In this document: piece by piece, positions 12,835-62,172 of the stretch
How positions within the stretch are numbered: the first letter of the stretch is position 1
How the letters are laid out: each line of letters opens with the position of its first letter
Source: Candidatus Staskawiczbacteria bacterium RIFOXYB1_FULL_38_37
GTDB lineage: Bacteria; Patescibacteriota; Minisyncoccia; Minisyncoccales; Staskawiczbacteraceae
Assembly (NCBI GenBank): GCA_001822075.1
Contig: MHPK01000002.1
Coordinates: forward strand, 75,872-139,871
Reading direction: 5' to 3'
Length of the DNA: 64,000 bases
The notes under the pieces: model-generated
Seen by the model: the letters and a program-made list of their open reading frames with translations, nothing else
Told to the model about the DNA's origin: nothing
Databases searched by the model: none
Made by a program: the position numbers and the translations under genes

Positions 12835-13233
12835 ATGAACGGAAAAAATATTGCAGAGGAAGAGCGCATGACATCTCAGAAAGAAATAGTTTTAGACTAT
12901 GTAAAAAATACAAAATGCCACCCTTCTGCCCAAAAAGTTTATACAGAAACAAAAAGATTGCTCCCGCGCATAAGCAAAGCCACTGTTTACAGAATTCTGA
13001 ATAATTTTAAAGATAAGGGAGAAATTCAAGAAATAGCCACAAAAAATATCACTTTTTTTGATGGGGATTTATCAAGCCACAGCCACTTTATATGTCAGGC
13101 ATGCGGAACTGTTTTTGATATTTTTGACGAATGCTCAAAATGCAATATTATAAAAAACAAAAAATTAAAGGTCGGAAAAATTAACAATTATAGAATTTAC
13201 TTTTATGGAATCTGCAAAAAGTGCAAAAAATAA
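12835..13233 (+). CDS. Fur-family transcriptional regulator (copy 1)
   Basis: Winged-helix region ISKATVYRILNNF, HSHFICQACG and CxxC pairs; alternative start at Met 12868. Confidence 0.8.
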   Translation: MNGKNIAEEERMTSQKEIVLDYVKNTKCHPSAQKVYTETKRLLPRISKATVYRILNNFKDKGEIQEIATKNITFFDGDLSSHSHFICQACGTVFDIFDECSKCNIIKNKKLKVGKINNYRIYFYGICKKCKK

Positions 13234-15634: not shown

Positions 15635-16929
15635 AAAAAATATATTTAGATTATGCGGCCACAACTCCTGTTGATAAAAGGGTTCAAAAAGCCATGATGC
15701 CCTATTTTGGCAGCCTGCCTGCCTCAAGGCAGGAAAAATTTGGCAACACAATGTCTTTGCACTCTTTTGGCCAGGAAGCAAAATTGGCTCTTGAAAACAG
15801 CAGGGCTGTTTTGGCCGATTTAATAAACGCCAAACCCAACGAAATAATTTTTACCAGCTCTGCCACAGAAAGCAACAACACGGCTTTAAAAGGAATTGCT
15901 TTTGCTTCGGCCCGCCGCAGCCCTGCCTTGCTGGCAGGCAGGCTTGGCGAAGGCGGCCATATTATAATTTCTCCCATTGAGCATCCCTGTATAATGGAGT
16001 CTTCAAAATGGTTAAAATCTAATGGGTTTGAAATAACTAAAATTCCGGTTGATAAATATGGAATGGTAAACCCGGAAGATGTCAGAAAAGCTATTACCGA
16101 CAAAACTATTTTGGTTTCTGTAATACACGCTTCAAATGAAATAGGCACGATTGAGCCTATTGAAGAAATCGGAAAAATTTGTCGAGAAGAAAAAATATAT
16201 TTTCATACTGATGCTTCGCAATCATTCGGCAAAATTCCAATTGATGTTAAAAAAATGAATATTGATTTGCTTACTGCTTCTTCCCATAAAATTTACGGTC
16301 CCAAGGGAGCAGGCCTTTTATATATAAGAGAGGGAATAAAACTTGCGCCATTATTGCACGGCGGCGGGCAGGAAAACGGATTAAGGTCGTCAACATCCAA
16401 TGTCTCCGCAATAGTCGGTTTTGCCAAAGCTGCAGAAATTTGCCAGAAGGAAATGAGGAAACCCGACAAAAGCCGAAGGCATTTTGACGGGTCCTCCACA
16501 ATTTTGCCAAAGACGAATTTGGGCGGGGAACAAAAAAGACAGGAAAAATTAAGGGATTATTTAATTAAAAATTTGTTAAAAATTAAAGGCAGTTATCTAA
16601 ACGGTCCGCCTCCAGCGAGGCAAAGCCATTCCGCGCAAAGGCTGGCAAACAATGTTAATGCAAGGTTTGATTTTATTGAAGGCGAGGCTTTAATAATACA
16701 GTTGGATATGCGAGGCATCGCTTGCTCAACTGGTTCCGCTTGCTCTTCAGCTTCACTTGAGCCAAGCCACGTTTTGTTGGCAATTGGATTGAGGCCTGAG
16801 CAAGCCCATGGGTCTTTAAGAATTTCTTTAGGCAGGCAGACAACCAAAAAAGACATTGATTATCTTTTGAAAGTTCTGCCAAAAATCATAAAACAATTAA
16901 GAGACATTTCACCATATGGCAAAAAATAA
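15631..16929 (+). CDS. cysteine desulfurase (NifS/IscS type) carrying in-frame G+C-rich insertions
   Basis: YLDYAATTP, SSHKIYGPKG (PLP-Lys), STGSACSS active-site loop; extra segments at about 15714-15733, 15908-15958, 16459-16530 and 16600-16640. Confidence 0.9.
   Translation: MKKIYLDYAATTPVDKRVQKAMMPYFGSLPASRQEKFGNTMSLHSFGQEAKLALENSRAVLADLINAKPNEIIFTSSATESNNTALKGIAFASARRSPALLAGRLGEGGHIIISPIEHPCIMESSKWLKSNGFEITKIPVDKYGMVNPEDVRKAITDKTILVSVIHASNEIGTIEPIEEIGKICREEKIYFHTDASQSFGKIPIDVKKMNIDLLTASSHKIYGPKGAGLLYIREGIKLAPLLHGGGQENGLRSSTSNVSAIVGFAKAAEICQKEMRKPDKSRRHFDGSSTILPKTNLGGEQKRQEKLRDYLIKNLLKIKGSYLNGPPPARQSHSAQRLANNVNARFDFIEGEALIIQLDMRGIACSTGSACSSASLEPSHVLLAIGLRPEQAHGSLRISLGRQTTKKDIDYLLKVLPKIIKQLRDISPYGKK
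16459..16530 (+). repeat. 72-bp G+C-rich double-hairpin element, copy A (inside the cysteine desulfurase gene)
   Basis: AAACCCGACAAAAGCCGAAGGCATTTTGACGGG... ; all 5 differences from copy B are A or T in this copy. Confidence 0.9.
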
Positions 16930-20956: not shown

Positions 20957-23256
20957 ATCAAAAAATAACTTTAAAAATTCAGGGAATGGACTGCGCTTCA
21001 TGCGCGGCTGTTATTGAACATAGTTTAAAAAAAACAAAAGGAGTTGTTTCGGCTTCCGTTAATTTTGCAACAGAAAAAGCGTATTTAGAATTTGATTCTG
21101 AAAAGACAAATACAGATGGTCTTAAAAAAATTGTTAAAGATTTAGGTTATAAGGCATTAGATGAAGATGAAGATAATGCTTCAACTGATGTTAAAACCGA
21201 TGACCATTCCGACCATCATAAAACAGAAAAAGACCTGCCTGCCGGCAGGCAGGACAGTGAAATTAAAAAGTTAAAACTTCGTTTTGTTTTATCATTGGTT
21301 TTTAGTTTGCCGGTTATTTATATGGTTATGGGCGGCATGTTGGGATTTCCAATGCCTGAAGTTTTTGAAAAATATGGTATTTTAATACAGGCGATTTTAT
21401 CAACAGCCGTGATTTTAGCTTCTTTTAATATTTGGCAATCCGGATTTAAAAAACTTTTGCGATTGGCTCCCAATATGGACTCTTTAATTCTTATTGGCAC
21501 AGCCACTGCTTATTTTTATAGTTTAGTAAATGCAGAATTTTTGCTGGCAGGAAGAGAAATAAGCATGGAAAATTTTTATTTTGAATCAGCCGCTTTTATT
21601 TTAGTTTTTATTTCTTTAGGCAAATATTTAGAAGCAGTTACAAAGGGAAAGACTTCGGCGGCGATTAAAAGTTTAATCGGATTGCAGCCTAAATTTGCGA
21701 TAATTATAAAAGACGGCAGGGAGCTGGAAGTTCCTATTTCCGAAGTGGCGGCAGGAGATATAATTTTGGTAAAGCCCGGTCAGAAGATTCCTGTTGACGG
21801 AATTGTGATTGACGGCTATTCCGGTGTTGATGAAAAAGCAATTACAGGAGAATCAATCCCGGTTGAAAAGAAAAAGGGAGACGAAGTTATCGGGGCCACA
21901 ATAAATAAAACCGGAGTTTTGCAATTTAAAGCAACAAGAGTTGGTAAAAATACCATGCTGGCCCAAATAATAAAAATAGTGGAAGAGGCTATGGGCTCTA
22001 AAGCGCCGATACAGCTGTTAGCAGATAAAGTTTCATTTTATTTTGTTCCGGCTGTGATAGCAATCGCTTTAATTTCTGGATTAGTTTGGTTTTTAGCCTT
22101 AGGCCAAGTTCCTATGGCTCTTACAATTTTTGTGGCGGTTTTAATTATTGCTTGTCCATGCGCATTGGGATTGGCAACTCCAACAGCAGTTATGATGGGC
22201 GCGGGCTTGGCCGCAGAAAGAGGAATTTTAATTAAATCCAGCAAGGCGTTAGAAATCGCCAAAGATGTGAATATGGTTGTTTTTGATAAAACTGGCACCC
22301 TAACAAAGGGCGAGCCGGTTGTTACGGAAATTATTTCTGTTGATAAAAAAATAAATGAAAAAATTATACTGGAAATTGCAGCTTCTCTGGAAAAAAATTC
22401 TGAACATCCCTTGGCTCAGGCAATTGTCAACAAAGCCAAGGAGGAAAAGCTTGCCCTGAGTAAAGTCGAAGGGTTTCAGGCAGTTCCAGGCAAGGGAGTG
22501 GAAGCAATGCTGAAAGCTGAAGCCACCTTCGCCAAGGCTTCGGCGAGCCAAAGAAAGATTTTGTTGGGGACAAGAATGCTTATGAAGGATAGCAAAATTT
22601 CTGCTGATTTTATTGAAGATAAAATGATAATCCTTGAAGACCAGGGAAAAACAGCCATGATTTTGGCTGTCGGTAAAAAAATTGTCGGGATTATTGCTGT
22701 TGCAGATGTTTTGAAAGAAAATTCCAAAGAAGCAGTTGATATTTTGCATAAAATGGGAAAACAAGTGGCGATTATTACAGGAGACAACAGAAGAGTTGGA
22801 GAGGCAATTGCCAAGCAATTAGGGATTGACAGGGTTTTAGCCGAAGTTTTACCGCAAGGAAAATCTGATGAAATAAAAAAATTGCAGAATGAAGGAAATA
22901 TCGTGGCAATGGTTGGAGACGGCATAAATGATGCTCCGGCTTTAGCTCAGGCAGATTTGGGCATTGCTTTGGGCTCTGGAACTGATGTGGCAATGGAAAC
23001 CGGAGAAATTGTTTTAATAAAAGACGACTTAAGAGATGTTGTAAAATCAATGGATTTGAGCAAATATACTTTGAATAAAATAAAACAAAATTTATTTTGG
23101 GCGTTTTTTTATAATATAGTTGGAATTCCAATTGCGGCTGGCGCCTTATATCCTCTCACTGGTTGGCTTTTAAATCCGTCTATCGCGGCAGGAGCTATGG
23201 CTTTTTCATCAGTCAGCGTTGTGCTGAACGCTTTGTCTATGAAAAGATATAAATAA
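20953..23256 (+). CDS. copA: copper-translocating P1B-type ATPase
   Basis: [26 protein letters not shown]; in-frame palindrome at 21234-21253. Confidence 0.95.
21234..21253. repeat. perfect 20-bp palindrome CCTGCCTGCCGGCAGGCAGG inside copA
   Basis: Read directly; encodes LPAGRQ. Confidence 0.9.
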
Positions 23257-28972: not shown

Positions 28973-29842
28973 ATGAAAAATAGATATATTTTGTTGTTTG
29001 CAGGGTTTTTGCTTTTGCTGAACGTTTTTTGCTGGCAAGAGGTTTTTATTTTAGTTCAAAGCCAAAATTTGTCTGTTTATTTTTTAGATGTGAGGCAGGG
29101 CGATTCAATTTTTATTGAAACTCCGCAAATGCACCAGATTTTAATTGATGGCGGTCCGGATTCGTCTGCATTAAGAGAATTGTCTTCTTTTATGCCTTTT
29201 TTTGACAGGACAATTGATTTAGTTATTTTAACGCACCCCGAAAAAGACCACATGCAAGGCTTAATAGACATTTTGCAAAGGTATAAAGCAGATTATATTT
29301 TATGGACAGGAATAAAAAAAAACGCGTCAGAGCATTCAGCTTGGCTGGATATTTTGCAAGAACAAAAAAATATGGGAGCTAAAATAATAATTGCAGAATC
29401 GGGCCAAAGGATAGTTGCAGGAAACGTTTCAATTGATACGTTGCATCCTCTAACAAATTTAGAAAACCAAGAGCCAAAATCTACCAATAACACTTCTGTT
29501 GTATCTCGTTTAATTTTTGAAGAAAACTCTTTTCTTTTTACAGGAGATATTTCAAGCAGTTTAGAAAAAAAGCTAGTTGTCCAAAATGTTAATTTAAGGT
29601 CAAATGTTTTAAAAATTGCCCACCACGGATCTAAGTATTCAACTTCTGAAGAATTTTTACAAAGTGTTAGTCCAAAAATTGCTGTAATCTCTGTTGGCAA
29701 AAATTCTTACGGACATCCCACACCCGAGGTTTTGCAAAAATTGGAAAATTTTGGTATACATATATTGAGAACAGACAAAGACGGGACAATAAGAATAGAG
29801 AGCGACGGCAATAGCATTAAAATTTTAAATAACAAATTTTAA
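28973..29842 (+). CDS. ComEC-C-terminal-like metallo-beta-lactamase-fold hydrolase
   Basis: TM helix, VYFLDVRQGDSIFIE..ILIDGG, THPEKDHMQG, AHHGSKYS. Confidence 0.75.
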   Translation: MKNRYILLFAGFLLLLNVFCWQEVFILVQSQNLSVYFLDVRQGDSIFIETPQMHQILIDGGPDSSALRELSSFMPFFDRTIDLVILTHPEKDHMQGLIDILQRYKADYILWTGIKKNASEHSAWLDILQEQKNMGAKIIIAESGQRIVAGNVSIDTLHPLTNLENQEPKSTNNTSVVSRLIFEENSFLFTGDISSSLEKKLVVQNVNLRSNVLKIAHHGSKYSTSEEFLQSVSPKIAVISVGKNSYGHPTPEVLQKLENFGIHILRTDKDGTIRIESDGNSIKILNNKF

Positions 29843-29865: not shown

Positions 29866-29928
29866 TAAATTTTAAAATTTAAACATTTAGATTTCATTTA
29901 AAATTTAGAATTTAAAATTAAAAATTAT
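29866..29928 (+). repeat. 63-nt AT-only element, copy 1 (identical to 32769-32831)
   Basis: Base-by-base identical; ends 3 nt before ATG 29932. Confidence 0.9.
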
Positions 29929-32360: not shown

Positions 32361-32771
32361 ATGCCTACAATACACCAATTAATCAAAAAACCAAGAAGGA
32401 ATAAAAAAAAAGCAAAGAAGACTGTTGCCTTGCAGTTTGGTTTTAACGTGCTTAAAAACAGAACGTCTTATTATCCTTCTCCATTCAAAAGGGGAGTATG
32501 CGTAAAAGTTTTTACCCAAACTCCTAAAAAGCCGAACTCAGCTGTAAGAAAGGTGGCCAGAGTAAAGCTTTCAAACGGCATGGAAGTTACAGCCTACATA
32601 CCAGGAGAAGGCCATAATTTGCAAGAGCACTCTATTGTTTTAATAAGGGGCGGAAGGGTTAAAGATTTGCCTGGAGTAAGGTATCATATTGTAAGAGGGG
32701 TTTTAGATACCGCCGGAGTTGAAAACAGAAAACAAACAAGAAGCAAATACGGAACTAAACGCGCGAAATAA
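32361..32771 (+). CDS. rpsL: 30S ribosomal protein S12
   Basis: [31 protein letters not shown]. Confidence 0.97.
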
Positions 32772-32831
32772 ATTTTAAAATTTAAACATTTAGATTTCAT
32801 TTAAAATTTAGAATTTAAAATTAAAAATTAT
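32769..32831 (+). repeat. 63-nt AT-only element, copy 2
   Basis: Identical to 29866-29928; overlaps the rpsL stop and ends 2 nt before ATG 32834. Confidence 0.9.
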
Positions 32832-37958: not shown

Positions 37959-38366
37959 ATGCCCGTTAAAAAATCAACTGCTACAAAGAAAAAAGCCAGC
38001 CTGCCTGCCGGCAGGCAGGCAAAAAAGGCAGCAAAAACAGAACAAAAGCCTGCTGAGCAGGCTTTGCCAAAGCTTCGCATAAAATTGCGCGCCTATGACC
38101 ACAAAATAATTGATAACTCAGCTCGCCAGATAATTGACATTGCAAACAGATACGGAGTTGAGGTTATAGGGCCTGTTCCTCTGCCAACAGAGGTGCTAAA
38201 GTTCACTGTAAACAGGTCAAGCTTTGTGCATAAAAACGCAAGAGAGCAGTTTGAAATGCGGGTGCACAAAAGGGTTATAGACATTTTGAATCCCAGCCAA
38301 GAAATAGTAGAAGCCCTGAGAGATTTAAATCTTCCTTCAGGTGTTGACATTACGGTTAAAATATAA
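37959..38366 (+). CDS. rpsJ: 30S ribosomal protein S10 with an apparent 38-aa N-terminal extension
   Basis: Core LRIKLRAYDHKIID..; the extension contains the palindrome at 37999-38020; a later non-ATG start cannot be excluded. Confidence 0.85.
   Translation: MPVKKSTATKKKASLPAGRQAKKAAKTEQKPAEQALPKLRIKLRAYDHKIIDNSARQIIDIANRYGVEVIGPVPLPTEVLKFTVNRSSFVHKNAREQFEMRVHKRVIDILNPSQEIVEALRDLNLPSGVDITVKI
37999..38020. repeat. perfect 22-bp palindrome GCCTGCCTGCCGGCAGGCAGGC in the rpsJ 5' region
   Basis: Read directly; encodes LPAGRQ in the same frame as in copA. Confidence 0.9.
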
Positions 38367-38502: not shown

Positions 38503-39099
38503 ATGAAGTTTATATTAGGTAAAAAAATTGGAATGTCTCAAATGTTTGATAAAGACGGAAATTTAGTTCCGGTCAGCTTAATATCCGCCGGACCCTGTTA
38601 TTTGCTGCAGCAAAAGAATAAAGAAAAAGATGGATATGACGCTTTGCAGATTGGTTTTGAAAAAATAGAAAAAAAATCGAAAATAAAAAAAACAATGAAA
38701 GGCAAAGAATACAGATATATTCGCGAAATCCGAAATCCGAAATCCGAAATCCGAAATATTGGTGACGAGGTAAATGTGTCTGAATTTCAAGAAGGAGATT
38801 TTGTGAAGGTTTCTGGCATGTCTAAAGGAAAAGGTTTTCAGGGCGGAGTAAAAAGGCATGGGTTTTCAGGCAGGAACGCCACTCACGGAGTAAAGCACGA
38901 ACACAGAACATTAGGTTCTACGGGCAGAAGGTTTCCCCAACATGTGCAAAAAGGAAGAAAAATGCCAGGCCGCATGGGATACGAAAAAGTAAACGTAAAA
39001 AATTTAGAAATAATCAAGGTTGATAAAGAAAATAATTTATTAGTAATAAGAGGGGCGGTTCCGGGAGTAAAGGGAGCATTGCTGGAAATTAGAGCATAA
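38503..39099 (+). CDS. rplC: 50S ribosomal protein L3
   Basis: GKKIGMSQMFD, GKGFQGGVKRHGF; contains a (GAAATCC)n repeat. Confidence 0.95.
   Translation: MKFILGKKIGMSQMFDKDGNLVPVSLISAGPCYLLQQKNKEKDGYDALQIGFEKIEKKSKIKKTMKGKEYRYIREIRNPKSEIRNIGDEVNVSEFQEGDFVKVSGMSKGKGFQGGVKRHGFSGRNATHGVKHEHRTLGSTGRRFPQHVQKGRKMPGRMGYEKVNVKNLEIIKVDKENNLLVIRGAVPGVKGALLEIRA
38725..38757 (+). repeat. tandem heptanucleotide (GAAATCC) x about 4.7 inside rplC
   Basis: Read directly; encodes EIRNPKSEIRN. Confidence 0.9.
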
Positions 39100-39118
39100 A
39101 TATGAAAATTGATTTGTA

Positions 39119-39147
39119 CCCGACAAAAGCTAAAACATTTTGACGGG
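39119..39147 (+). repeat. hairpin CCCGACAAAAGC-TAAAA-CATTTTGACGGG (half copy of the 72-bp element)
   Basis: Both 12-nt arms identical to those at 16462-16491 and 39871-39900. Confidence 0.8.
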
Positions 39148-39163
39148 CAAGCAACTAAAAGAA

Positions 39164-39793
39164 ATGAAATATCCTGTTTATAATATTGATGGGAAAGAAA
39201 TTGAAAGCACAAATTTACCCAAAAAGATATTTGAGGTTGCTTTTAACGCTGATTTGGTGCATCAAGTTGCTGTTTCTCAAATGGCAAATAAAAGGCAGAT
39301 TTCAGCTCACGCAAAAACCAGGGCGGAAGTAAGGGGCGGAGGCAGAAAGCCATGGCGCCAGAAAGGAACAGGAAGAGCAAGGCACGGTTCAAGCCGTTCG
39401 CCAATCTGGAGAGGGGGCGGAATAACTTTTGGGCCAAGAAATGACAAAGTGTATGCAAAAAATCTGCCCAAAAAAATGAGAAGAAAAGCTTTGTTTATGG
39501 CGCTTTCAGAAAAAGCCAGAAACAGCCAATTAATTATTTTAGATAAAATAGAATTAGAAAAAGGAAAAACAAAAGAAATGGCAAAAATTATTTCAGCTCT
39601 TCCTTGCAAAAATCAAAGCTGTTTGCTTGCTTTGCCAAATCACGACAAGAAAATATTTTTAGCTTCAAGAAACATTAAAAAAACAAATATTGAAGACGCA
39701 AGAAATTTAAATGTGCTCGACGTGCTGAATTCAAAGTATTTATTAATAATAAAAGAAAGCATTAAAACAATCGAAAAAACTTTTGTAAAATAA
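39164..39793 (+). CDS. rplD: 50S ribosomal protein L4
   Basis: KTRAEVRGGGRKPWRQKGTGRAR. Confidence 0.95.
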   Translation: MKYPVYNIDGKEIESTNLPKKIFEVAFNADLVHQVAVSQMANKRQISAHAKTRAEVRGGGRKPWRQKGTGRARHGSSRSPIWRGGGITFGPRNDKVYAKNLPKKMRRKALFMALSEKARNSQLIILDKIELEKGKTKEMAKIISALPCKNQSCLLALPNHDKKIFLASRNIKKTNIEDARNLNVLDVLNSKYLLIIKESIKTIEKTFVK

Positions 39794-39795
39794 CT

Positions 39796-40269
39796 ATGGC
39801 TTTATTTGATTTTTTAAAAAGAAAAAAAGAGATAGAAAAGTCCAAAGAAGTCAGGAAGACCGCAAAAAAACCCGACAAAAGCCGAAGGCATTTTGACGGG
39901 CCCGCCACAATTTCGCCGAAGGCGAATTTGGGCGGGGAAGAAAAGCCAGAAACCGTTGTCCAAAAGCCAGTTGCAAGACCAAAAAAGAACGTTAAATTTT
40001 CATATGAGGCCATAACAAAGCCGCACATATCAGAAAAAGCCACATATTTGGCAGAAAAAAATCAATATATTTTTGTAGTTCCCGTTTCCTATAATAAAAA
40101 AGAAATTAAAAATTCTGTAGAAGGGATTTACAATGTGGATGTGCTGTCTGTCAACAAAGTTAAAATTCCAGCAAAAAAAAGAAGGATAGGCGCTACGCAG
40201 GGGTTTAAAAAAGGATTTGTGAAAGCAATAGTAAAAATAAAGGAAGGTCAAAAAATAGAGGTTTTGTAA
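39796..40269 (+). CDS. rplW: 50S ribosomal protein L23 with a long N-terminal extension
   Basis: Core ITKPHISEKATYL..; the roughly 65-aa extension contains the repeat at 39868-39939. Confidence 0.85.
   Translation: MALFDFLKRKKEIEKSKEVRKTAKKPDKSRRHFDGPATISPKANLGGEEKPETVVQKPVARPKKNVKFSYEAITKPHISEKATYLAEKNQYIFVVPVSYNKKEIKNSVEGIYNVDVLSVNKVKIPAKKRRIGATQGFKKGFVKAIVKIKEGQKIEVL
39868..39939 (+). repeat. 72-bp G+C-rich double-hairpin element, copy B
   Basis: 67/72 identical to 16459-16530, same reading frame. Confidence 0.9.
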
Positions 40270-50870: not shown

Positions 50871-50874
50871 ATTT

Positions 50875-51272
50875 GTCCTAATAAGACCGTAAGCCGAATT
50901 CTGTTTTATGCAACCATCTGTCTTGGCTTAGAATTACTCCTAAGCTCTGGCGAACTACTTTGCTCCCTCATCAAGCTTTAAAATTCATAAATGAATTTTC
51001 CAGGCTTTACCCTGAGCTTGTCGAAGGGTTTGTTCTTGCGCCCAATAAGGATTTAGCCGTTTCATTTTTACATTGCTGTAAAATTATCCCATGAAGGGAT
51101 GCTGAACCTTTCGGTCCAAGCCGTTTCTGTTCGCACCTCGTCCGCCCGCAACTGCGTAGCTGTTGGCGGAGACGGCTGTTAGCCGCTATTATTTTATCCC
51201 GCCATAGGCGGGAGGGTGTTCGGACTTTCCTCTCTTCATTAAATAAAGAGCGATTGCTCGTCTTATTAGGAC
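50875..51272 (-). ncRNA. rnpB: RNase P RNA (bacterial type)
   Basis: Minus strand has GAGGAAAGUCCGAACACC (CR-I), 3' ACAGAAUUCGGCUUACGGUCUUAUUAGGAC pairing with 5' GUCCUAAUAAGACGAGC (P1); about 398 nt. Confidence 0.85.
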
Positions 51273-53016: not shown

Positions 53017-53018
53017 AC

Positions 53019-53046
53019 GAATAACTCAACAGCCGTTGAGTTATTC
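53019..53046 (+). repeat. 28-bp hairpin direct repeat, left copy
   Basis: GAATAACTCAACAGCCGTTGAGTTATTC, identical to 55369-55396. Confidence 0.9.
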
Positions 53047-53050
53047 AAAC

Positions 53051-55163: not shown

Positions 55164-55370
55164 ATGGTTAGTTTAGTCATTATTTTAGCCGTTGCTGTTA
55201 TTGCAGTTTTTGTTATTAGCGGGATTGTTTGGGCTGTGCGGAAAGATTCAAAAGATGAGAAAAAAGAGAAAACAATGCCAGCGCTGGTGCAAAGGCAGGC
55301 GGCGGAAAAACAGGGAGTTTTAAAACAGGTGGGTGATATTGGGCAGGGAGTTTATTATACAAAAACATGA
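55164..55370 (+). CDS. small single-TM protein
   Basis: MVSLVIILAVAVIAVFVISGIVWAV then charged tail; stop lies inside the right repeat. Confidence 0.4.
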   Translation: MVSLVIILAVAVIAVFVISGIVWAVRKDSKDEKKEKTMPALVQRQAAEKQGVLKQVGDIGQGVYYTKT

Positions 55371-55396
55371 ATAACTCAACAGCCGTTGAGTTATTC
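55369..55396 (+). repeat. 28-bp hairpin direct repeat, right copy
   Basis: Identical to 53019-53046. Confidence 0.9.
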
Positions 55397-55400
55397 GGTA

Positions 55401-55490: not shown

Positions 55491-57338
55491 ATGCAAGAAA
55501 ATATCAGGAATTTTTCTATCATTGCTCACATTGACCACGGCAAGTCCACATTGGCTGACCGGCTTTTGGAGTTGACGGGCACAATAGACCCTAAAAAAAT
55601 GATGCCTCAATTTTTAGATTCAATGGATTTGGAAAGAGAAAAAGGAATTACCATAAAACTAAAAGCCATCAGAATGGAACTAGACCCATTGAAAATTGAA
55701 AATTTAAAATTGAAAATTCCAGTTCAGAACTATGTTCTGAATCTGGTGGATACTCCCGGCCACGTTGATTTTTCTTATGAGGTTTCAAGGTCTATGGAAG
55801 CTGTTGAAGGAGCTGTTTTATTGGTTGACGCAACGCAGGGAATTCAGGCGCAAACTTTGGCAAATTTGGAACTGGCAAAACAACAGAACTTGAAAATTAT
55901 TCCTGTAATAAATAAAATTGATTCGCCCATAGCAAAAGTTGAAGAGTCAGTTGAAGAGCTGTCAAATCTTTTGGATATTTTGCCCGATGAAATTATAAAA
56001 ATTTCTGCAAAAGACGGCACAAATGTTGCGCAAGTTTTAGAAACTATTATACGAGAAGTACCTGGACCCGCCCAAAGCCCTGCGGGCATTGAGGCGGGTG
56101 AACGCCCCTTCAGGGCGCTCATTTTTGATTCAGAGTACGATTCTTTCAAAGGCGTAATTGCTTTTGTGCGCGTTATTGACGGTGAAATTTCAAACGGAGA
56201 AAAAATTGAATTAATGGCAACAGACGCGCCAGCTGAAATAAAAGAGCTTGGTTATTTAAATCCTGATTTTTCTCCAAAAGAAAAATTAACGGCGGGCGAT
56301 ATAGGATATATTGCAACAGGAATTAAGGAGCCTGGCAAAGTTACAGCGGGTGATACCATTATCAAACAGCAATCTTTGGCAACAAAAGGCAGTATTAAAC
56401 CTTTACCAGGATACCAAGAGCCAAAGCCAATGGTGTTTGCTTCATTGTACCCCGAAAATCCCGATGACTTCGGCGATTTAAAAGTTGCCTTGTCAAAATT
56501 AAAATTAAATGACCCTGCATTGATTTTTGAGCAGGAAATGAAAGAGGCTTTGGGAAGGGGGTTTAATTGCGGGTTTTTGGGCACCTTGCATATTGAAATT
56601 ATTTCAGAAAGATTGCAAAGAGAATTTGGCTTAAACCTGGTAATTTCAACGCCGTCTGTTGTCTATAAAATAATAGACAATAAAGACAAAGAAATTTTGA
56701 TTTATTCAGCTTCTGATTGGCCCGACCAGTCAAAAATAAAAAGCTCCGAAGAGCCATGGGTGTCATTAGAAGTTATAGCTCCGTCTAGCCAAATAGGAAA
56801 GCTGATGGAAATTCTAAAAAGTTTGAAAGGCAATTATGTGGACACAAATTATTTGAGCCCCGAAAGAGCTGTCATAATTTTTGAAACTCCTTTGCGGGGA
56901 ATTATTGCCAATCTATACGACAAAATAAAAACAGCCAGCCAGGGGTATGCTTCAATGAATTATAAAATTTTAGGATATAGGCCGGCAAAATTAGTAAAAA
57001 TGGAAATTTTAATTGCAGGGCATAAAGAAGAGGCGCTTTCAAAAATTGTGGCAGAAGAAGAAGCTTATTTTGAGGGTAAAAAAGTTGTTGAAAAATTAAA
57101 AGATGTTTTGCCAAAGCAAATGTTTTCTGTTGCCTTGCAGGCGGCTGTCGGAGGAAAAATTATTGCCAGAGAAACAATTAGGGCTTATATGAAAGATGTT
57201 GCGGGATATCTTTACGGGGGAGATATAACTAGAAAAAATAAATTGCGCGAAAAACAAAAAAAGGGCAAAAAGCTTATGAAGCAAAAAGGCCAGATAAATG
57301 TGCCAACAAAAGCATTTTTAGAAGTATTCAGGGCTTAG
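55491..57338 (+). CDS. lepA: translation elongation factor 4
   Basis: IIAHIDHGKSTLADRLL, DTPGHVDF, NKID; C-terminal LepA-specific region; start trimmed from 55422. Confidence 0.95.
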   Translation: MQENIRNFSIIAHIDHGKSTLADRLLELTGTIDPKKMMPQFLDSMDLEREKGITIKLKAIRMELDPLKIENLKLKIPVQNYVLNLVDTPGHVDFSYEVSRSMEAVEGAVLLVDATQGIQAQTLANLELAKQQNLKIIPVINKIDSPIAKVEESVEELSNLLDILPDEIIKISAKDGTNVAQVLETIIREVPGPAQSPAGIEAGERPFRALIFDSEYDSFKGVIAFVRVIDGEISNGEKIELMATDAPAEIKELGYLNPDFSPKEKLTAGDIGYIATGIKEPGKVTAGDTIIKQQSLATKGSIKPLPGYQEPKPMVFASLYPENPDDFGDLKVALSKLKLNDPALIFEQEMKEALGRGFNCGFLGTLHIEIISERLQREFGLNLVISTPSVVYKIIDNKDKEILIYSASDWPDQSKIKSSEEPWVSLEVIAPSSQIGKLMEILKSLKGNYVDTNYLSPERAVIIFETPLRGIIANLYDKIKTASQGYASMNYKILGYRPAKLVKMEILIAGHKEEALSKIVAEEEAYFEGKKVVEKLKDVLPKQMFSVALQAAVGGKIIARETIRAYMKDVAGYLYGGDITRKNKLREKQKKGKKLMKQKGQINVPTKAFLEVFRA

Positions 57339-57405: not shown

Positions 57406-59025
57406 ATGAAAATTAAATCATTTGCAATAATATCAGCATTATTTTTAGTTTTATTAATAATTCCAGGTGCCAGTTATGCGCAGACTTGGTGCCATACTTT
57501 TAATAAAAATTTAGGCGTTGCAGATTCTGGCTCAATTGATGTGGCATATCTTCATGTCGCTCTTTTATCAGAGGGCATTTCATATGGAAATGACGGTCTT
57601 ATTGCTTATTCAGATGGAACGATTGCCGGCGTAATCGTATTTCAGGAAAAATATGCTTCTGAAATTTTAGCTCCATGGGGCCTCACAAAAGGCACAGGAT
57701 ATGTTGGCACAACAACAAGGGCAAAACTAAACCAGCTTTATGGATGTTCAAGCTCTTCGGGCAATTCAGGGACACCCACTTGCGCTGTAAACTGGCAGTG
57801 CACAAATTGGGGCAATTGCTACAGCAACCAGCAAATAAGAGTTTGCACTGACTACAATTTCTGCGGCACAACTTCTGGCAAGCCAGTTGAAACCCAATCC
57901 TGCGCTTCTTCAACCTGCGCTCCAAGTTGGCAGTGCACGGGTTGGAGCGCATGTTCTGGCGGCCAGCAAACTAAAACTTGCACAGATTATAACTTCTGCG
58001 GCACAACTTCTGGCAAGCCGGCAACAACGCAGTTTTGTTCTTCTACTAATACAAATAACACAAACAATACAAACACTTGCCAGGCGACCTGCATAACTCA
58101 GACAGATGGAGTTTATGCCATTGACTGCTATGGAAATCCGACAAAGTGCAGTTCAACTCAAATTTGCGAAAAAACTTTTGACACAAGCTATAACTATTCA
58201 AGCGGGTATGTGCAGACTATACAAACTTTAACAGGGGCCCACTGCGCATACAGCAGTAGCAGCAACACAAATAATACAAGTTGCACGCCAAATTGGCAGT
58301 GCGCTGGTTGGGGCGCATGCTATAACGGTTATCAAACACAAACTTGCACAGATTACAACTTCTGCGGCACAACATATAACAAACCTGCAACAAGCCGGAG
58401 TTGTTGTACCGAAGATTGGGAGTGCGGTAATTGGTCAGCTTGCGCTAACAACCAACAAACGCGTACCTGCGCAGATTTAAATAGTTGCGGAATTGCAACT
58501 AAAACTGAAAGCCAGTATTGTTGTGTTGAAAATTGGGACTGCGGTGACTGGAGTAGCTGCAACAATGAACAACAGACAAAAACCTGCGTAGATTTAAATA
58601 ATTGCGGCACAACTTTAAATAAGCCCGCAACCTCGCAATATTGTTGCGAGCCCAATTGGTTTTGCAGTCTCTGGGGAGTTTGTTCAGCTTATGGCCAGCA
58701 AACAAGAACCTGCGCCGATTCAAATAGTTGCGGAACTCCAGAAGGCAAGCCAGAAACAACGCGATCTTGCGCCTGCGTTGAAAAATGGCAATGCGGAGCT
58801 TTTAGTGCTTGCTACAATAGTCAGCAGACGCGCTTTTGCTATGATGCAAATCACTGCGGAACTACAACAAACAAACCCTATACTAAGCAGTCATGCACCT
58901 CAACTTGCAGTCCAAATTATGTATGCAGCCAACAGCCCGCCTGCAAAAACAGCCAGATACAGAGCTACTGCTATGATTTAAATGCGTGCTTTAGCCAGTC
59001 TGAATTTAGAATCTGCGCATTTTAA
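57406..59025 (+). CDS. secreted protein: peptidoglycan-binding-like module plus about 8 six-Cys repeats
   Basis: Signal peptide; FQEKYASEILAPWGL; repeats C-x3-W-x-C-x2-W-x2-C-x4-5-Q-x-(R/K)-x-C-x-D-x-N-x-CGT. Confidence 0.7.
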   Translation: MKIKSFAIISALFLVLLIIPGASYAQTWCHTFNKNLGVADSGSIDVAYLHVALLSEGISYGNDGLIAYSDGTIAGVIVFQEKYASEILAPWGLTKGTGYVGTTTRAKLNQLYGCSSSSGNSGTPTCAVNWQCTNWGNCYSNQQIRVCTDYNFCGTTSGKPVETQSCASSTCAPSWQCTGWSACSGGQQTKTCTDYNFCGTTSGKPATTQFCSSTNTNNTNNTNTCQATCITQTDGVYAIDCYGNPTKCSSTQICEKTFDTSYNYSSGYVQTIQTLTGAHCAYSSSSNTNNTSCTPNWQCAGWGACYNGYQTQTCTDYNFCGTTYNKPATSRSCCTEDWECGNWSACANNQQTRTCADLNSCGIATKTESQYCCVENWDCGDWSSCNNEQQTKTCVDLNNCGTTLNKPATSQYCCEPNWFCSLWGVCSAYGQQTRTCADSNSCGTPEGKPETTRSCACVEKWQCGAFSACYNSQQTRFCYDANHCGTTTNKPYTKQSCTSTCSPNYVCSQQPACKNSQIQSYCYDLNACFSQSEFRICAF

Positions 59026-59078
59026 AATTATTCCGTTCAAAATTATAATTTTTAAAAGTATTAATAGATTTTAATTTT

Positions 59079-61013
59079 ATGAAAATAAAAATATTTTTAA
59101 TAGCAGTTTTGTTTTTATCTTTGCTGATAATTCCCGGAGTAATTTTGGCGCAAGAGTGGTGTCACACCTTTAAGGTTGGTTTAAGAAAAGGCGACCAAAG
59201 CCAGGAAGTTTCTGAACTACAAAGAGCTTTGATGAAAGAAGGACTTTTATTTATTCCCCAGCCCACTGGCTTTTTTTGGAATGCTACATTTGACGCTGTT
59301 GTTGCTTTTCAGGAAAAATATGCTTCTGAAATTTTAGCTCCTTGGGGATTAACTCGCGGGAATGGCGTGGTGAGCTTTAAAACAAGAGAAAAATTAAATC
59401 AACTCTATGGATGTTCAACAATTTCCACCTGTACTCCGAGTTGGCAATGCGCAGATTGGAATATGTGTTCAAACAATCAGCAGACCCGAACCTGCGCAGA
59501 TTCTAATAATTGCGGAACAACGGCAAACAAACCCATAACAACTCAGTCGTGTTCTTCAACTTGCACTCCAAACTGGCAATGTTCAGATTGGAGCGCGTGC
59601 GTTACAGGCGGCCGGCAGACCCGAGCCTGTACTGATTCTAATAATTGCGGAACAACTCAACCAGAAACAGCTAGGTTTTGCCCTTGTACTCCGGATTGGG
59701 AATGTATCCAATGGAGCCCCTGTTGGAATGGCGAGAGAGCCCGCGCATGTCACGATAAAAATAATTGCGGTGATAACACAAACAGACCCGAGATAAGACA
59801 ATCCTGCGCGTATACTTGTGAGCCAAATTGGTCTTGCACAGATTGGAGTAATTGTATTCCTACTGGTTTAACGAGCGGTATAAAATATAGAAATTGTGTA
59901 GATGAGGGCAATTGCGGAACAACCGCAAATAAACCTTTAACAACGCAAGTTTGTTCTACTGGAGCTCCTGCTCCAGTTCCTGAATGCACATCAGCCGATT
60001 GGTCTTGCACAGACTGGTCAGATTGTTCTGTTTCCGGCGCTGTTCCTTTGAGCAGCACCCAGACTTTGACTGGCACTCAAACCCGCACCTGTAGTAGAAA
60101 ATCAGGTAATAATTGTTATGGTGGCAATCCCGCAACAAGCCAGTCTTGCACCGTGGAAGTAGAGGTTCCAACACCAACTCCAACCCCGACGCCTACGCCA
60201 ACACCAACTCCAACCCCGACCCCGACTCCGATTGAACCAACGCCGACCCCGACCCCGACTCCAACGCCAATAGGGATAGCTCCTACACCAGGATGTACCA
60301 TGTCTGCTCAACCTACTATAGGTTGGAGTAGTTGCGTTTGTGGCGAGAAATATAAAACAAATTATGTCGTTCAATATTGTCCTGATGGAACAACTGAAAG
60401 CCTCAGCGAGACAATGCAAGAAGCTCAATGCGGTTATAAAGTAGGAACGAAAACATATTGCTATGAAGGTTCAAAAGATCCCCAAAATAATAGCAAGAGT
60501 AAGGAAGTGTGCGCTGTTAATAATTGGAATGGTACGTTAGGAGATACTTGGCTGATCGGCTACAAAGATCAAGGAGCTCAGTGTGTTGTTAAAAACGGAG
60601 TGATAGGCGGTACATGTGGTTATAATTGTTATTTTAGTGGAGGAGAACAAATACATTATCCAGACACAAAGCCTCATTGCAGTTCAGAGTGTAAACAAGA
60701 TAATAATGGAAGACTATGGGCCGTCAATGAGGGGGGTAATGTGTCACCACATTCAAGGGTAAATTGCGGATATGTATCAAGCGGAGCTAAATGTACACTT
60801 CAAGATGGCACTTATTGTAAAAAAGCTGTCTGTTTGAGTAATCTTGCCACCGCTCCTAAGCCATCTGGCGGCAGTTCGGGGTCGTCTCTAACACCTCTTA
60901 ATTCTACTCCAACTCCAACACCGATCCGGACCCTGACTCCAACTCTTGACGATATCCAAAATCAGCTGGCATCTATTGCGAGTGTAATTTATAATTTATT
61001 GAATCCTCAATAA
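59079..61013 (+). CDS. secreted paralogue: peptidoglycan-binding-like module, about 5 six-Cys repeats, (PT)n linker and Cys-rich C-terminal domain
   Basis: Same N-terminal architecture; PT-rich linker encoded at 60167-60270. Confidence 0.7.
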   Translation: MKIKIFLIAVLFLSLLIIPGVILAQEWCHTFKVGLRKGDQSQEVSELQRALMKEGLLFIPQPTGFFWNATFDAVVAFQEKYASEILAPWGLTRGNGVVSFKTREKLNQLYGCSTISTCTPSWQCADWNMCSNNQQTRTCADSNNCGTTANKPITTQSCSSTCTPNWQCSDWSACVTGGRQTRACTDSNNCGTTQPETARFCPCTPDWECIQWSPCWNGERARACHDKNNCGDNTNRPEIRQSCAYTCEPNWSCTDWSNCIPTGLTSGIKYRNCVDEGNCGTTANKPLTTQVCSTGAPAPVPECTSADWSCTDWSDCSVSGAVPLSSTQTLTGTQTRTCSRKSGNNCYGGNPATSQSCTVEVEVPTPTPTPTPTPTPTPTPTPTPIEPTPTPTPTPTPIGIAPTPGCTMSAQPTIGWSSCVCGEKYKTNYVVQYCPDGTTESLSETMQEAQCGYKVGTKTYCYEGSKDPQNNSKSKEVCAVNNWNGTLGDTWLIGYKDQGAQCVVKNGVIGGTCGYNCYFSGGEQIHYPDTKPHCSSECKQDNNGRLWAVNEGGNVSPHSRVNCGYVSSGAKCTLQDGTYCKKAVCLSNLATAPKPSGGSSGSSLTPLNSTPTPTPIRTLTPTLDDIQNQLASIASVIYNLLNPQ

Positions 61014-61143: not shown

Positions 61144-61498
61144 CGCGCCTTGGAGGAGTAGTACCTCGACAGTCTCATATTGTAGCCTCGTGCGATTCGA
61201 GGCAAAATGTGACCCCGAGCGGTAACGCTCGGCGGAAAAATTCCTTAAATTGCTGGAAACCCTGCAAGCATCCTAAAATACTACTATGCGTAGTAGCATG
61301 GTAGTGATAATTTTTAGGCGATGCAGACAATCAGCAGCCAAATCCACGAAAGTGGAGAGGTTCAGAGACTATAATAGGAATTACCAATTCGTGTGCCTGC
61401 CGGTAGGCAGGAATTGGTAAGTGGTATAGTCCATTCCTTTTAGCGATAAAAGGTAAAAAAAGAAGCTGTAGGCCCTGGTGCAATTCCAGGAGGCGCAA
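61144..61498 (+). tRNA. intron-containing tRNA (CAU), initiator-like; exons 61144-61178 and 61463-61498
   Basis: Cloverleaf forms only after removing 61179-61462; C1xA72 mismatch, A11:U24, U8, U33, anticodon CAU. Confidence 0.7.
61179..61462 (+). ncRNA. group I intron in the anticodon loop (no ORF)
   Basis: Core elements AAAUUGCUGGAAACCC, GCAGCCAAAUCC, GUUCAGAGACUAUA, GGUAUAGUCC; 5' exon ends in U, intron ends in G. Confidence 0.75.
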
Positions 61499-61809: not shown

Positions 61810-62172
61810 ATGATTACATCACAGAGAAAAATTATCTCGGATTATCTAAAAAATGTTGCTTCTCATCCTTCGGCCGAGAAAATTTATCTTGAAGTCAGGA
61901 AGATATTGCCGAGAATAAGCAAAGGGACAGTTTACAGAAACTTGAAGACCCTAAAAGAGAATGGAGAAATTCAGGAGATTTCTATAGGCGAATCGCGTTA
62001 TGACGGCAACATTTCCTCGCACGCTCATTATATCTGTCAAAAGTGCGGCAGGATATTTGATATTTTTGAAGACTGCCGGAATTGTAAAATCCTAAAGCAT
62101 AAAAGAACAAAGGTCGGGAAAATAAATCAATATCAAATTAATTTCTACGGTATCTGCAAAAAATGTGGATAA
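61810..62172 (+). CDS. Fur-family transcriptional regulator (copy 2)
   Basis: Clearly paralogous to 12835-13233 when aligned by eye over the whole length: ISKGTVYRNLKTL, HAHYICQKCG, FYGICKKCG. Confidence 0.8.
   Translation: MITSQRKIISDYLKNVASHPSAEKIYLEVRKILPRISKGTVYRNLKTLKENGEIQEISIGESRYDGNISSHAHYICQKCGRIFDIFEDCRNCKILKHKRTKVGKINQYQINFYGICKKCG

Follow-up and report, generated by a model that had tools for sequence, protein, structure and literature searches.

The 64,000-nucleotide stretch of DNA analysed here (hereafter the window) originates from Candidatus Staskawiczbacteria bacterium RIFOXYB1_FULL_38_37, an ultra-small member of the Candidate Phyla Radiation (CPR, Patescibacteria), and corresponds to positions 75,872 to 139,871 of contig MHPK01000002.1. 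The G+C content of the window is 37%. Two of its genes, coding for a cysteine desulfurase of the NifS/IscS type and for ribosomal protein L23 (rplW), each harbour in frame a full copy of a short G+C-rich element (53-61% G+C) composed of two adjacent hairpins. An isolated first hairpin was found between rplC and rplD, and a partial relative of the second hairpin lies in the open reading frame (ORF) of lepA (EF-4). The coordinates of these features are listed in Table 1.

In the repeat search, the two full copies emerged as a 77-nt direct repeat of 92% identity (16459-16535 and 39868-39944, family D12). Over positions 16459-16530 and 39868-39939 they are identical at 67 of 72 nucleotides and are translated in the same frame, KPDKSRRHFDG(S/P)(S/A)TI(L/S)PK(T/A)NLGGE, exactly as stated in the initial annotation of this DNA. 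At each of the five mismatches (16492, 16495, 16505, 16509 and 16513) the NifS copy has T or A where the L23 copy has C or G. The 30-nt hairpin 1 (CCCGACAAAAGCCGAAGGCATTTTGACGGG) occurs twice in the window in exact form, where shuffled sequences lead one to expect 0.00 occurrences, and the intact 37-nt sequence of hairpin 2 has an exact match in the L23 copy only. Folded as RNA, the L23 copy forms two adjacent hairpins of -39.1 kcal/mol (z = -6.4, none of 200 shuffles being as good), and the NifS copy retains hairpin 1 together with a weakened hairpin 2 (-23.1 kcal/mol, z = -2.2). The double hairpin of the initial annotation was thus confirmed by the fold, as was its claim that the five differences, all of them from G/C to A/T, weaken hairpin 2 of the desulfurase copy; the decay toward A/T that it had suggested for this copy fits a genome of such low G+C content. 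The isolated hairpin 1 arms that it had placed between rplC and rplD are present as well, lodged in the 64-nt spacer that separates the rplC stop (39099) from the likely rplD start ATG (39164). This hairpin has the loop GCTAAAAC, a variant shared with locus L061, and its fold reaches -10.5 kcal/mol (z = -2.8). The identity of hairpin 1 as a K-turn or a terminator was discarded, as there are neither tandem G.A pairs nor a T-run 3' of the hairpins.

Table 1. Coordinates of the element, its host genes and related features (window positions unless another locus is named)
Feature	Position	Strand	Remarks
Cysteine desulfurase NifS/IscS, 432 aa	15631..16929	+	E 1e-109 to A. fulgidus IscS2 (4eb5/4r5f)
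Element copy A, in NifS/IscS gene	16462..16527	+	Hairpin 1, 16462-16491, intact; hairpin 2, 16492-16527, weakened
Copy A, peptide PDKSRRHFDGSSTILPKTNLGG	16462..16527	+	NifS residues 278-299
Copy A, covariance model R1	16462..16527	+	65.3 bits, E 4.7e-13
Solo hairpin 1, CCCGACAAAAGC-TAAAA-CATTTTGACGGG, rplC-rplD spacer	39119..39147	+	R1 27.7 bits, E 2.3e-4, hairpin 1 part only
Ribosomal protein L23, rplW, 157 aa, with lineage-typical N-terminal extension	39796..40269	+	100% identical to P0121
Element copy B, intact, in frame in rplW N-terminal extension	39871..39936	+	Hairpin 1, 39871-39900; hairpin 2, 39901-39936
Copy B, peptide PDKSRRHFDGPATISPKANLGG	39871..39936	+	L23 residues 26-47
Copy B, covariance model R1	39871..39936	+	80.2 bits, E 1.7e-16
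Partial relative, hairpin-2-type unit CCCGCCTCAATGCCC-GCA-GGGCTTTGGGCGGG, in lepA (EF-4) ORF	56067..56098	-	R1 29.0 bits, E 1.2e-4; surrounding peptide GPAQSPAGIEAG
Predicted tryptic peptides of the element			HFDGPATISPK, ANLGGEEKPETVVQK (L23); HFDGSSTILPK (NifS)
Second palindrome family, five sites	15718-15733, 15927-15942, 21234-21253, 38000-38019, 61396-61411
RNase P RNA with hairpin 1 as P3, locus L068	6582-6968	sense
RNase P RNA with hairpin 1 as P3, locus L131	2828-3281	sense
RNase P RNA with hairpin 1 as P3, locus L126	2579-3014	sense
RNase P RNA with hairpin 1 as P3, locus L080	340-695	antisense

When compared with solved structures, the NifS protein of the window contains four short G+C-rich extra segments (residues 23-29, 97-107, 279-299 and 328-334), the third of which is the element. 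The nearest of 17 aligned homologues (P0001, 92% identical over the aligned positions) shares the first two segments and lacks the element. Alignment of its DNA (locus L147) with the window reveals a single clean gap of 66 columns opposite CCCGAC...GGCGGG (16462-16527), and hence the inserted unit comprises 66 bp, or 22 codons (30 nt of hairpin 1 and 36 nt of hairpin 2), and not the 72 bp proposed initially, since AAA and GAA on either side are part of the target. The empty site reads ..GGTAAAA|GAGCAA.. and the filled one ..AGGAAA[66 bp]GAACAA.., so that AAA and GA(A/G)C are already present before insertion; no duplicated bases were seen at this single pair of filled and empty sites. As the solved IscS/NifS structures are also devoid of these residues, the segment can be regarded as an insertion, as had been supposed, and the precise empty site in the nearest relative makes it lineage-specific in the case of NifS. 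The same alignments of proteins and DNA rule out an ancestral sequence. An assembly artefact was likewise ruled out, the identical 432-aa protein with its insert being encoded by at least 24 contigs from several projects, two NCBI assemblies among them (GCA_001820325.1, MHPG01, and GCA_003518025.1, DOZL01), and listed in 71 blocks of the sequence collection.

In a more distant NifS (P0036, locus L152; 75% identical, found on 17 contigs), an intact 66-bp element belonging to a different subfamily is located four codons upstream of the site used in the window. Its distal stem is CTCGCC-AAG-GGCGAG, as against TTCGCC-GAA-GGCGAA in the window, and it is likewise situated between AAA and GAA; judging from the alignment, this copy is best read as an independent insertion in NifS. 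The residues just before the insert of the window align to residue ~264 of E. coli IscS, in a region which we take to be the end of the large domain binding pyridoxal phosphate and the start of the small domain. In the AlphaFold model, which is of low confidence (17 sequences, mean predicted local distance difference test score of 55), residues 276-297 are drawn as a coil between two helices. The three other extra segments of NifS correspond to positions 15697-15717, 15898-15960 and 16602-16627 of the window. At these surface spots the homologues hold other G+C-rich peptides, such as KASDGQS, KATARQS, SAQGGPASGW, GEPLYG and TPPRRGPRNDK...VIASEPAGERGNL, which suggests that several families of hairpin elements may share insertion hot spots in NifS.

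The copy in rplW was originally assigned to the 5' region of the gene. The gene was named correctly, but the element resides within the coding N-terminal extension and not in a 5' untranslated region. All 26 aligned L23 proteins of the Staskawiczbacteria type consist of the N-terminal motif MALFDFLKRKK (with D5, F6, L7, K8 and K10 invariant), a variable lysine-rich linker and the L23 core; the protein identical to that of the window (P0121) is named Candidatus Staskawiczbacteria and was found on 43 contigs. Because the conserved protein motif precedes the element and the L23 domain follows it, the reading frame must run through the element. The element peptide, or a decayed form of it such as HLGGPASIPPKADLGG, is present in nine of the 26 proteins and absent in the others, and a rough neighbour-joining tree built from the core domain intersperses the carriers with non-carriers. 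The closest L23 relative (locus L151) retains an orthologous copy, in which hairpin 2 is identical at 35 of 36 positions and the outermost C-G pair of hairpin 1 has been replaced on both sides by T-A; the flanking coding sequence has diverged, with insertions and deletions. The lineage specificity expected from alignment was therefore met with in NifS, but the L23 copy is common to at least one sister lineage.

Further copies, which had been anticipated in the event that the element is mobile, proved to be numerous beyond the relative in lepA. Public sequences were scanned with the pattern CCGACAAAAGC-N3-8-CATTTTGACGG, which represents the two arms of hairpin 1, specifies 22 bases, and for which ~0.4 chance matches are estimated in 596 Gb. 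The pattern is matched exactly by 30 loci of a collection with one genome per GTDB species and by at least 116 metagenome loci. According to the record titles, the 30 loci comprise 12 from Staskawiczbacteria, six from Saccharibacteria, five from "Patescibacteria group" and one each from Parcubacteria, Woesebacteria and Gottesmanbacteria, the remainder being three Third Party Annotation bins labelled Gammaproteobacteria, a single bin of Clostridia, another without classification and an isolate of Marinilabiliaceae. The match in the latter (L018) lacks the distal stem and was set aside as probably due to chance, given the number of chance matches expected. Altogether, at least 125 non-redundant copies beyond the window were found in at least 146 public contigs, nearly all of them labelled CPR. 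When the three copies of the window are included, at least 62 of 128 copies have hairpin 2 directly after hairpin 1; the others were classed as solo, a class that is overcounted, as the classifier missed some copies with variant second hairpins.

With a covariance model (R1) built from 59 distinct full copies, no more than some six additional, diverged copies came to light in 578 kb from other loci. No Rfam family matching the element was detected by a gathering search of the whole window or by a permissive search of positions 39080-39990. Phage records searched with blastn and IMG/VR viral contigs scanned with the hairpin 1 pattern yielded no match either, so that there is nothing in these collections to indicate a viral carrier. 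At the protein level, a word-indexed search with two concatenated element peptides returned two candidates, and an exhaustive HMMER search of the 31-aa window peptide against 1.84 billion representatives returned two matches, one to an unrelated repeat protein and the other to an 82-aa ORF that carries the element and has a SecA-like C-terminal zinc motif; a peptide of 22 aa is too short for these databases, and the counts are uninformative on abundance. Full-text literature searches retrieved no description of the element or of the hairpin-GIY-YIG-tRNA cassettes described below in CPR. The papers that come nearest treat group I introns of Patescibacteria tRNAs (10.1101/2025.07.03.662931) and insertion sequences located in CPR rRNA genes (PMC11270868). 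The latter mentions sparse GIY-YIG ORFs in non-intron rRNA insertions, and a term search of its main text retrieved neither the word hairpin nor the word palindrome.

Since the search pattern prescribed both arms of hairpin 1, they are uninformative on covariation, and only hairpin 2 and the tip of hairpin 1 were free to vary. In the 59 distinct full copies, hairpin 2 displays changes on both sides in 12 of its 15 pairs; columns 40-69, for example, are occupied by C-G in 21 copies, by A-U in 18, by G-C in 11 and by U-A in five. Over the whole structure 95% of the cells pair, as opposed to 33-49% after a shift of the 3' partners by 1-3 columns, and the observed covariation was reached by none of 500 shuffles. 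The A.A mismatch and the bulged A of hairpin 1 are conserved in every case. In the hairpin 2 variant CCCGTC...GGTCGGG (19 of the 59 copies) a T.T mismatch occupies the mirror position, which is fully paired in the commoner CCCGCC variant. As the T.T variant resembles the reverse complement of hairpin 1, the element may be considered a quasi-symmetric doublet, and this fits its occurrence in both orientations. The ends of the element, CCCGMC... and ...GKCGGG, are mutual inverted repeats, and its loops are mostly of 3 nt, such as GAA and TTC, and closed by C-G.

Sixteen of 61 distinct full copies are situated in frames that remain open over 40 codons or more on either side. The length of the element is divisible by three in 14 of these 16 and in 16 of the 38 clearly non-coding copies (Fisher p = 0.002), and 12 of the coding copies use one and the same frame out of six, the peptide of which begins with P-D-K-S. 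Together with the conserved L23 motif upstream of the copy in rplW, this constraint on length supports the in-frame translation assumed in the initial annotation. Hosts identified with Pfam include Dus, a class-I aldolase, a thioredoxin-reductase-like (TrxB-like) flavoprotein, MiaA, TatD, Mfd, a small methyltransferase, the HMA domain at the N-terminus of a copper ATPase and a TrwB-like ATPase; GyrA, GyrB (with two copies in a single N-terminal extension), DnaG and FtsZ were recognised by eye. As far as reading frames and domain assignments go, it is clear that coding copies are carried in frame by intact essential genes.

The element is not confined to protein genes. In four RNase P RNA genes that score above the Rfam gathering threshold, hairpin 1 constitutes helix P3, three times in the sense and once in the antisense orientation, and the same junction with RNase P P4 sequence was seen in loci L008 and L037. 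Both orientations at one structural position argue for a palindrome tolerated at the DNA level and against a strand-specific RNA signal. Copies were also detected in an expanded 16S rRNA gene (L006) and in a group I intron (L004). As for the class A RNase P RNA of the window itself (50874-51269, minus strand, 104.5 bits), its P3 region holds another G+C hairpin (CCCGCCATAGGCGGG, 51198-51212) and not hairpin 1.

The element is also found in tRNA genes, at the D-loop junction of which at least 19 of the 128 copies reside. Many copies form part of cassettes that begin with a tRNA 5' fragment ending in the D-loop (...TAGCTCAGTTGGTTA|), followed by the two hairpins, GAGC (the 3' strand of the D-stem), a short leader, an ORF of ~85 aa and a complete tRNA, the first ~20 nt of which repeat the upstream fragment. 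The ORFs encode GIY-YIG catalytic domains (PF01541, E 1e-14 to 1e-16). Among the matches listed, a GIY-YIG ORF is located within 600 nt of 23 of the 125 non-redundant copies (18%). In 19 of the 23 the hairpins precede the ORF, between the tRNA 5' fragment and the ORF start, in either orientation, and in the remaining four the ORF is upstream of the hairpins. Nearly every GIY-YIG cassette in the loci has a double hairpin at this place, including the sequence-divergent ones in L001, L069 and L129. GIY-YIG ORFs of ~85 aa in tRNA genes were noted in L042, L045, L047, L082, L117, L141, L145, L007, L013, L014, L017 and others, and in L128 and L048 a second, whole tRNA gene, bounded by long inverted repeats, lies inside the disrupted tRNA.

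Of 61 distinct flank pairs, 35 have A on one side of the element and GA on the other, or TC and T where the element is inverted, compared with ~4% expected from base composition. The orientation-normalised consensus of the flanks, G-N-W-A | G-A-R-C, resembles the D-loop/D-stem sequence GGTA|GAGC, and the empty site of NifS reads GGTAAAA|GAGC. A preference for A|GA targets is suggested by these flanks.

Alignments, folds and gene neighbourhoods thus establish a lineage-specific insertion, a large and structurally constrained family that extends across CPR and a tight association of this family with GIY-YIG cassettes resident in tRNA genes. From these observations we infer that the double hairpin may be the cis-acting end module of the cassettes and the GIY-YIG protein the mobilising enzyme. 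Probably, the element is a selfish, mobile, G+C-rich double-hairpin module of ~66 bp that is widespread in CPR, and its solo copies would be non-autonomous derivatives of the tRNA-resident cassettes. A GIY-YIG nuclease acting in trans would break DNA at sites that resemble the D-loop and D-stem of a tRNA (GGTA|GAGC), and solo 66-bp copies would be placed there. The element would enter at sites mostly reading A|GA without duplicating the target. Copies would persist only where the harm is slight. In protein genes these would be copies whose length is a multiple of three, usually in the frame giving the hydrophilic, Pro- and Gly-rich peptide PDKS..HFDGPATISPKA.LGG, and located in linkers; the junction of the large and small domains of NifS and the lysine-rich N-terminal linker of L23 would represent such tolerant sites. 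In RNA genes the element would replace or extend a peripheral helix. After insertion a copy would be translated within the host protein and would subsequently decay under the A+T mutation bias of the genome.

Several observations weigh against this interpretation or limit its reach. The L23 copy, which is common to a sister lineage, is better preserved than the younger-looking NifS copy; this is not predicted by purely neutral decay and hints at selection on the structure or at repeated conversion. A tblastn search with four cassette ORFs detected no GIY-YIG gene in the window. As the loci were chosen by requiring hairpin 1, the linkage to GIY-YIG ORFs demonstrates an association and not a direction of cause, and it is conceivable that the hairpins are a parasite in their own right, directed at the same tRNA site. 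The A|GA preference and the apparent lack of target duplication rest partly on flank statistics, in which the tRNA cases weigh heavily, and on one empty site, and both the translation of the element and nuclease cutting at such sites are predictions.

As the chief alternative, a different enzyme might be responsible for the spread. If the element were mobilised as single-stranded hairpin DNA by an IS200/IS605-type Y1 transposase or by a transposase associated with repetitive extragenic palindromes (REP-associated tyrosine transposase, RAYT), in the manner of the REP doublets known as REPINs, its association with GIY-YIG genes would be incidental, both merely favouring tRNA genes. The anatomy of the element is indeed reminiscent of a REPIN, with its two imperfect, roughly inverted palindromes, conserved asymmetric mismatches and bulge, and short loops closed by C-G, and Y1 transposases read such mismatches on single-stranded DNA. 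However, tblastn with an approximate IS200 TnpA query, a weak test, gave nothing at E <= 1 in the window and ~0.9 Mb of loci bearing the element. REPINs are extragenic, in contrast to the 16 or more of the 61 full copies that are found in long ORFs, and the GIY-YIG gene is the only enzyme gene that recurrently adjoins the element. Mobilisation of this kind therefore seems unlikely. Slightly less likely still is a host-beneficial structural module that is kept by selection at the RNA or DNA level, possibly as a signal for mRNA stabilisation or processing, a site of translational pausing or a hairpin bound by protein, and that spread by recruitment and not by parasitism; it would be most conceivable for the well-preserved L23 copy. 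Such a role would account for the compensatory changes in hairpin 2, for the L23 copy that is preserved between orthologues amid diverging flanks with one compensatory pair change in hairpin 1, for the part of hairpin 1 as a structural helix of RNase P RNA and for the constant position upstream of GIY-YIG ORFs, where a stem-loop at the 5' end of the mRNA could lend it stability. The presence or absence of the element in the same gene of close relatives, its two orientations both in RNase P P3 and relative to GIY-YIG ORFs, which are contrary to a strand-specific RNA signal, and the decay of the NifS copy with its weakened hairpin 2 nevertheless fit a parasite better than a benefit to the host; no Rfam family matches, and covariation is equally expected of a parasite that needs its hairpin to propagate.

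One may also ask whether the segment is translated at all, or is instead excised, either from the RNA in the manner of a tiny intron or from the protein. Introns are unusually frequent in CPR genomes, those of group I having been reported in tRNA genes of Patescibacteria (10.1101/2025.07.03.662931), a tRNA-Met gene of this very window contains one, and the element itself also occurs inside tRNA-derived sequences and rRNA insertions. An excised segment would, however, need neither frame nor open codons, and the length and frame filter seen in the coding copies is hence the main argument against this explanation. Moreover, no intron model matches the segment, which consists of 66 nt in two simple hairpins and has no known ribozyme core. 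Excision accordingly appears highly improbable. The preferred interpretation of a selfish module related to the tRNA-resident cassettes can be carried one step further, to a kind of bacterial mobile element that has not been described before, with the double hairpin as cis-acting end and a minimal GIY-YIG nuclease of ~85 aa that cuts D-loop-like A|GA sites. The autonomous form would be housed in tRNA genes and would keep the tRNA functional by duplicating its 5' part, and non-autonomous 66-bp doublets would be copied into breaks throughout CPR genomes, including genes for essential proteins and RNase P RNA. We offer this extension tentatively, as it is considerably less secure than the mobility of the element as such.

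The window contains several other repeats. A second family of G+C-rich palindromes, CCTGCC(TGCC)GGCAGGCAGG, occurs at five sites, compared with 0.11 expected, and its hosts are NifS (peptides SLPASRQ and LLAGRLG), a copper P-type ATPase (DLPAGRQD), the N-terminus of S10 (SLPAGRQA) and a tRNA-Met group I intron; LPAGRQ and LPAGRH peptides were also noticed at other positions in NifS and L23 homologues. Between 61125 and 61500 a tRNA gene with a CAT anticodon is apparently split by a group I intron (RF00028, 61177-61453, 66 bits) and is not called by ARAGORN. Its 5' half ends in ...ACAGTCTCATA, and the 3' half, ...GCTGTAGGCCCTGGTGCAATTCCAGGAGGCGCA, directly precedes an uninterrupted tRNA-Met (61512) and tRNA-Asp (61590). 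At 57776-60030, 60159-60273 and 60888-60945, a long array of diverged, Cys- and Trp-containing repeats of ~126 nt, or 42 aa (D1-D5, D14), is followed by Pro/Thr-rich (ACNCCN)n linker repeats (D7), and the array looks like a large secreted or surface repeat protein.

Two A+T-rich segments of 63 nt (29866-29928 and 32769-32831), which are 2903 nt apart and 100% identical, have relatives at 29818, 29833, 47238 and 55688, some of them mutually inverted (D8, D9, I1-I8); the pair may serve as promoter or spacer repeats or mark the two ends of a 2.9-kb unit. Near-identical 30-nt palindromes (CGAATAACTCAACAGCCGTTGAGTTATTCA) at 53018-53047 and 55368-55397, 2.3 kb apart (I13), look like terminator hairpins reused at two gene ends. 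Finally, positions 12964-13223 and 61909-62165 share 71-76% identity over 70-140 nt, including a helix-turn-helix-like segment (...ISKATVYRILNNFKDKGEIQE; D10, D15), and probably belong to paralogous regulator genes at both ends of the window.

Several practical consequences follow for work on CPR genomes. Many odd G+C-rich peptide segments in CPR proteins, not only of the PDKS..HFDGPATISPKA.LGG type but also of the LPAGRQ and KASAGQ types met with nearby, are probably derived from such elements and should be masked in alignments, phylogenies and structure predictions. Arrangements of tRNA fragment, hairpins and small ORF can confuse the annotation of CPR tRNAs. The linkage to GIY-YIG genes supplies a candidate enzyme that can be cloned and a candidate target (A|GA, D-loop-like), by which the spread of the element becomes experimentally testable. 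If the tentative extension given above is true, a MITE-like system (MITE, miniature inverted-repeat transposable element) driven by a GIY-YIG enzyme would continually supply CPR proteins with new peptide segments.

Among known systems, MITEs share with the CPR element the terminal inverted repeats, here CCCGMC/GKCGGG. No target duplication was seen, as judged from the single NifS site, and the element is therefore not a classical MITE; the double hairpin constitutes the left module of GIY-YIG cassettes and is found at one end only. The likeness to REP sequences and REPINs includes imperfect G+C-rich palindromes of ~30 nt with mismatches (here 30 and 36 nt), the many dispersed copies and the compensatory changes. 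The inverted doublet of REPINs is approached here in the T.T variant of hairpin 2 and less so in the commoner, fully paired one. In contrast to the extragenic REPINs, the CPR element is often intragenic, as are both full copies of the window, and the adjoining enzyme gene is of the GIY-YIG type. Being intragenic and having no RAYT detectable with the approximate TnpA query in the window and the loci, it is not a typical REPIN.

A precedent for the position of the enzyme gene is provided by SegB of phage T4, a free-standing GIY-YIG homing endonuclease gene in a tRNA gene cluster (PMC2330249). Genes of both kinds are small GIY-YIG genes among or within tRNA genes and are probably inherited, together with their flanks, by break-and-repair copying. 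The CPR ORF differs in consisting of the catalytic domain alone and in being preceded by a duplicated tRNA 5' fragment with the double hairpin in its D-loop. The hairpin module of CPR, moreover, also occurs alone in hundreds of other places, and the nuclease activity and target of the ORF product are predicted.

Meanwhile, mitochondrial genomes offer an analogy to the hairpins themselves. The double-hairpin elements of Allomyces and fission yeasts, the GC clusters of yeast and the repetitive hairpin-forming elements of sponges, cited in PMC5910586 and PMC2800124, have been suggested to be mobile and to go along with mobile endonuclease genes and lateral transfer. They too are G+C-rich double hairpins in compact, A+T-rich genomes and occupy spacers, introns, variable rRNA regions and occasionally protein genes. 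Since their hosts are organelles, the comparison is one of analogy only and implies no homology. We know of no report that such mitochondrial elements occupy proteins systematically in frame or hold a fixed position in a tRNA-GIY-YIG cassette.

The closest parallel in behaviour is that with the Rickettsia palindromic elements (RPEs), to which the initial annotation had already likened the element. To our knowledge, in-frame palindromic invaders have been a Rickettsia curiosity for 25 years, with no known mechanism of spread. RPEs were described by Ogata et al. (2000) and are, according to the review PMC10969869, short palindromic repeats inserted in frame in many intact housekeeping genes. They are elements of ~100-150 bp, grouped into families RPE-1 to RPE-10 and belonging to a single genus of Alphaproteobacteria, whereas the CPR element is a two-hairpin doublet of ~66 bp that spans many CPR classes, its named hosts being Staskawiczbacteria, Woesebacteria, Gottesmanbacteria, Parcubacteria, Saccharibacteria and Patescibacteria. 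The CPR element further differs in entering structured RNA genes (RNase P helix P3, a group I intron and a 16S insertion) and in its recurrent link to the GIY-YIG cassette. Because of its size and host lineage it is not a member of any RPE family, a distinction drawn from descriptions, and the similarity in behaviour pointed out in the earlier proposal, the in-frame insertion of a palindrome, is upheld. In both cases a hairpin-forming palindrome for which a transposase is not known has entered the small, A+T-rich genome of a host-dependent bacterium and adds a conserved peptide at tolerant surface positions of genes that stay intact, as NifS and L23 do here. Behaviour of the RPE kind thus now extends to the very different and far larger group of CPR/Patescibacteria, in which gyrase, primase, FtsZ, L23, NifS and RNase P are among the genes hit.

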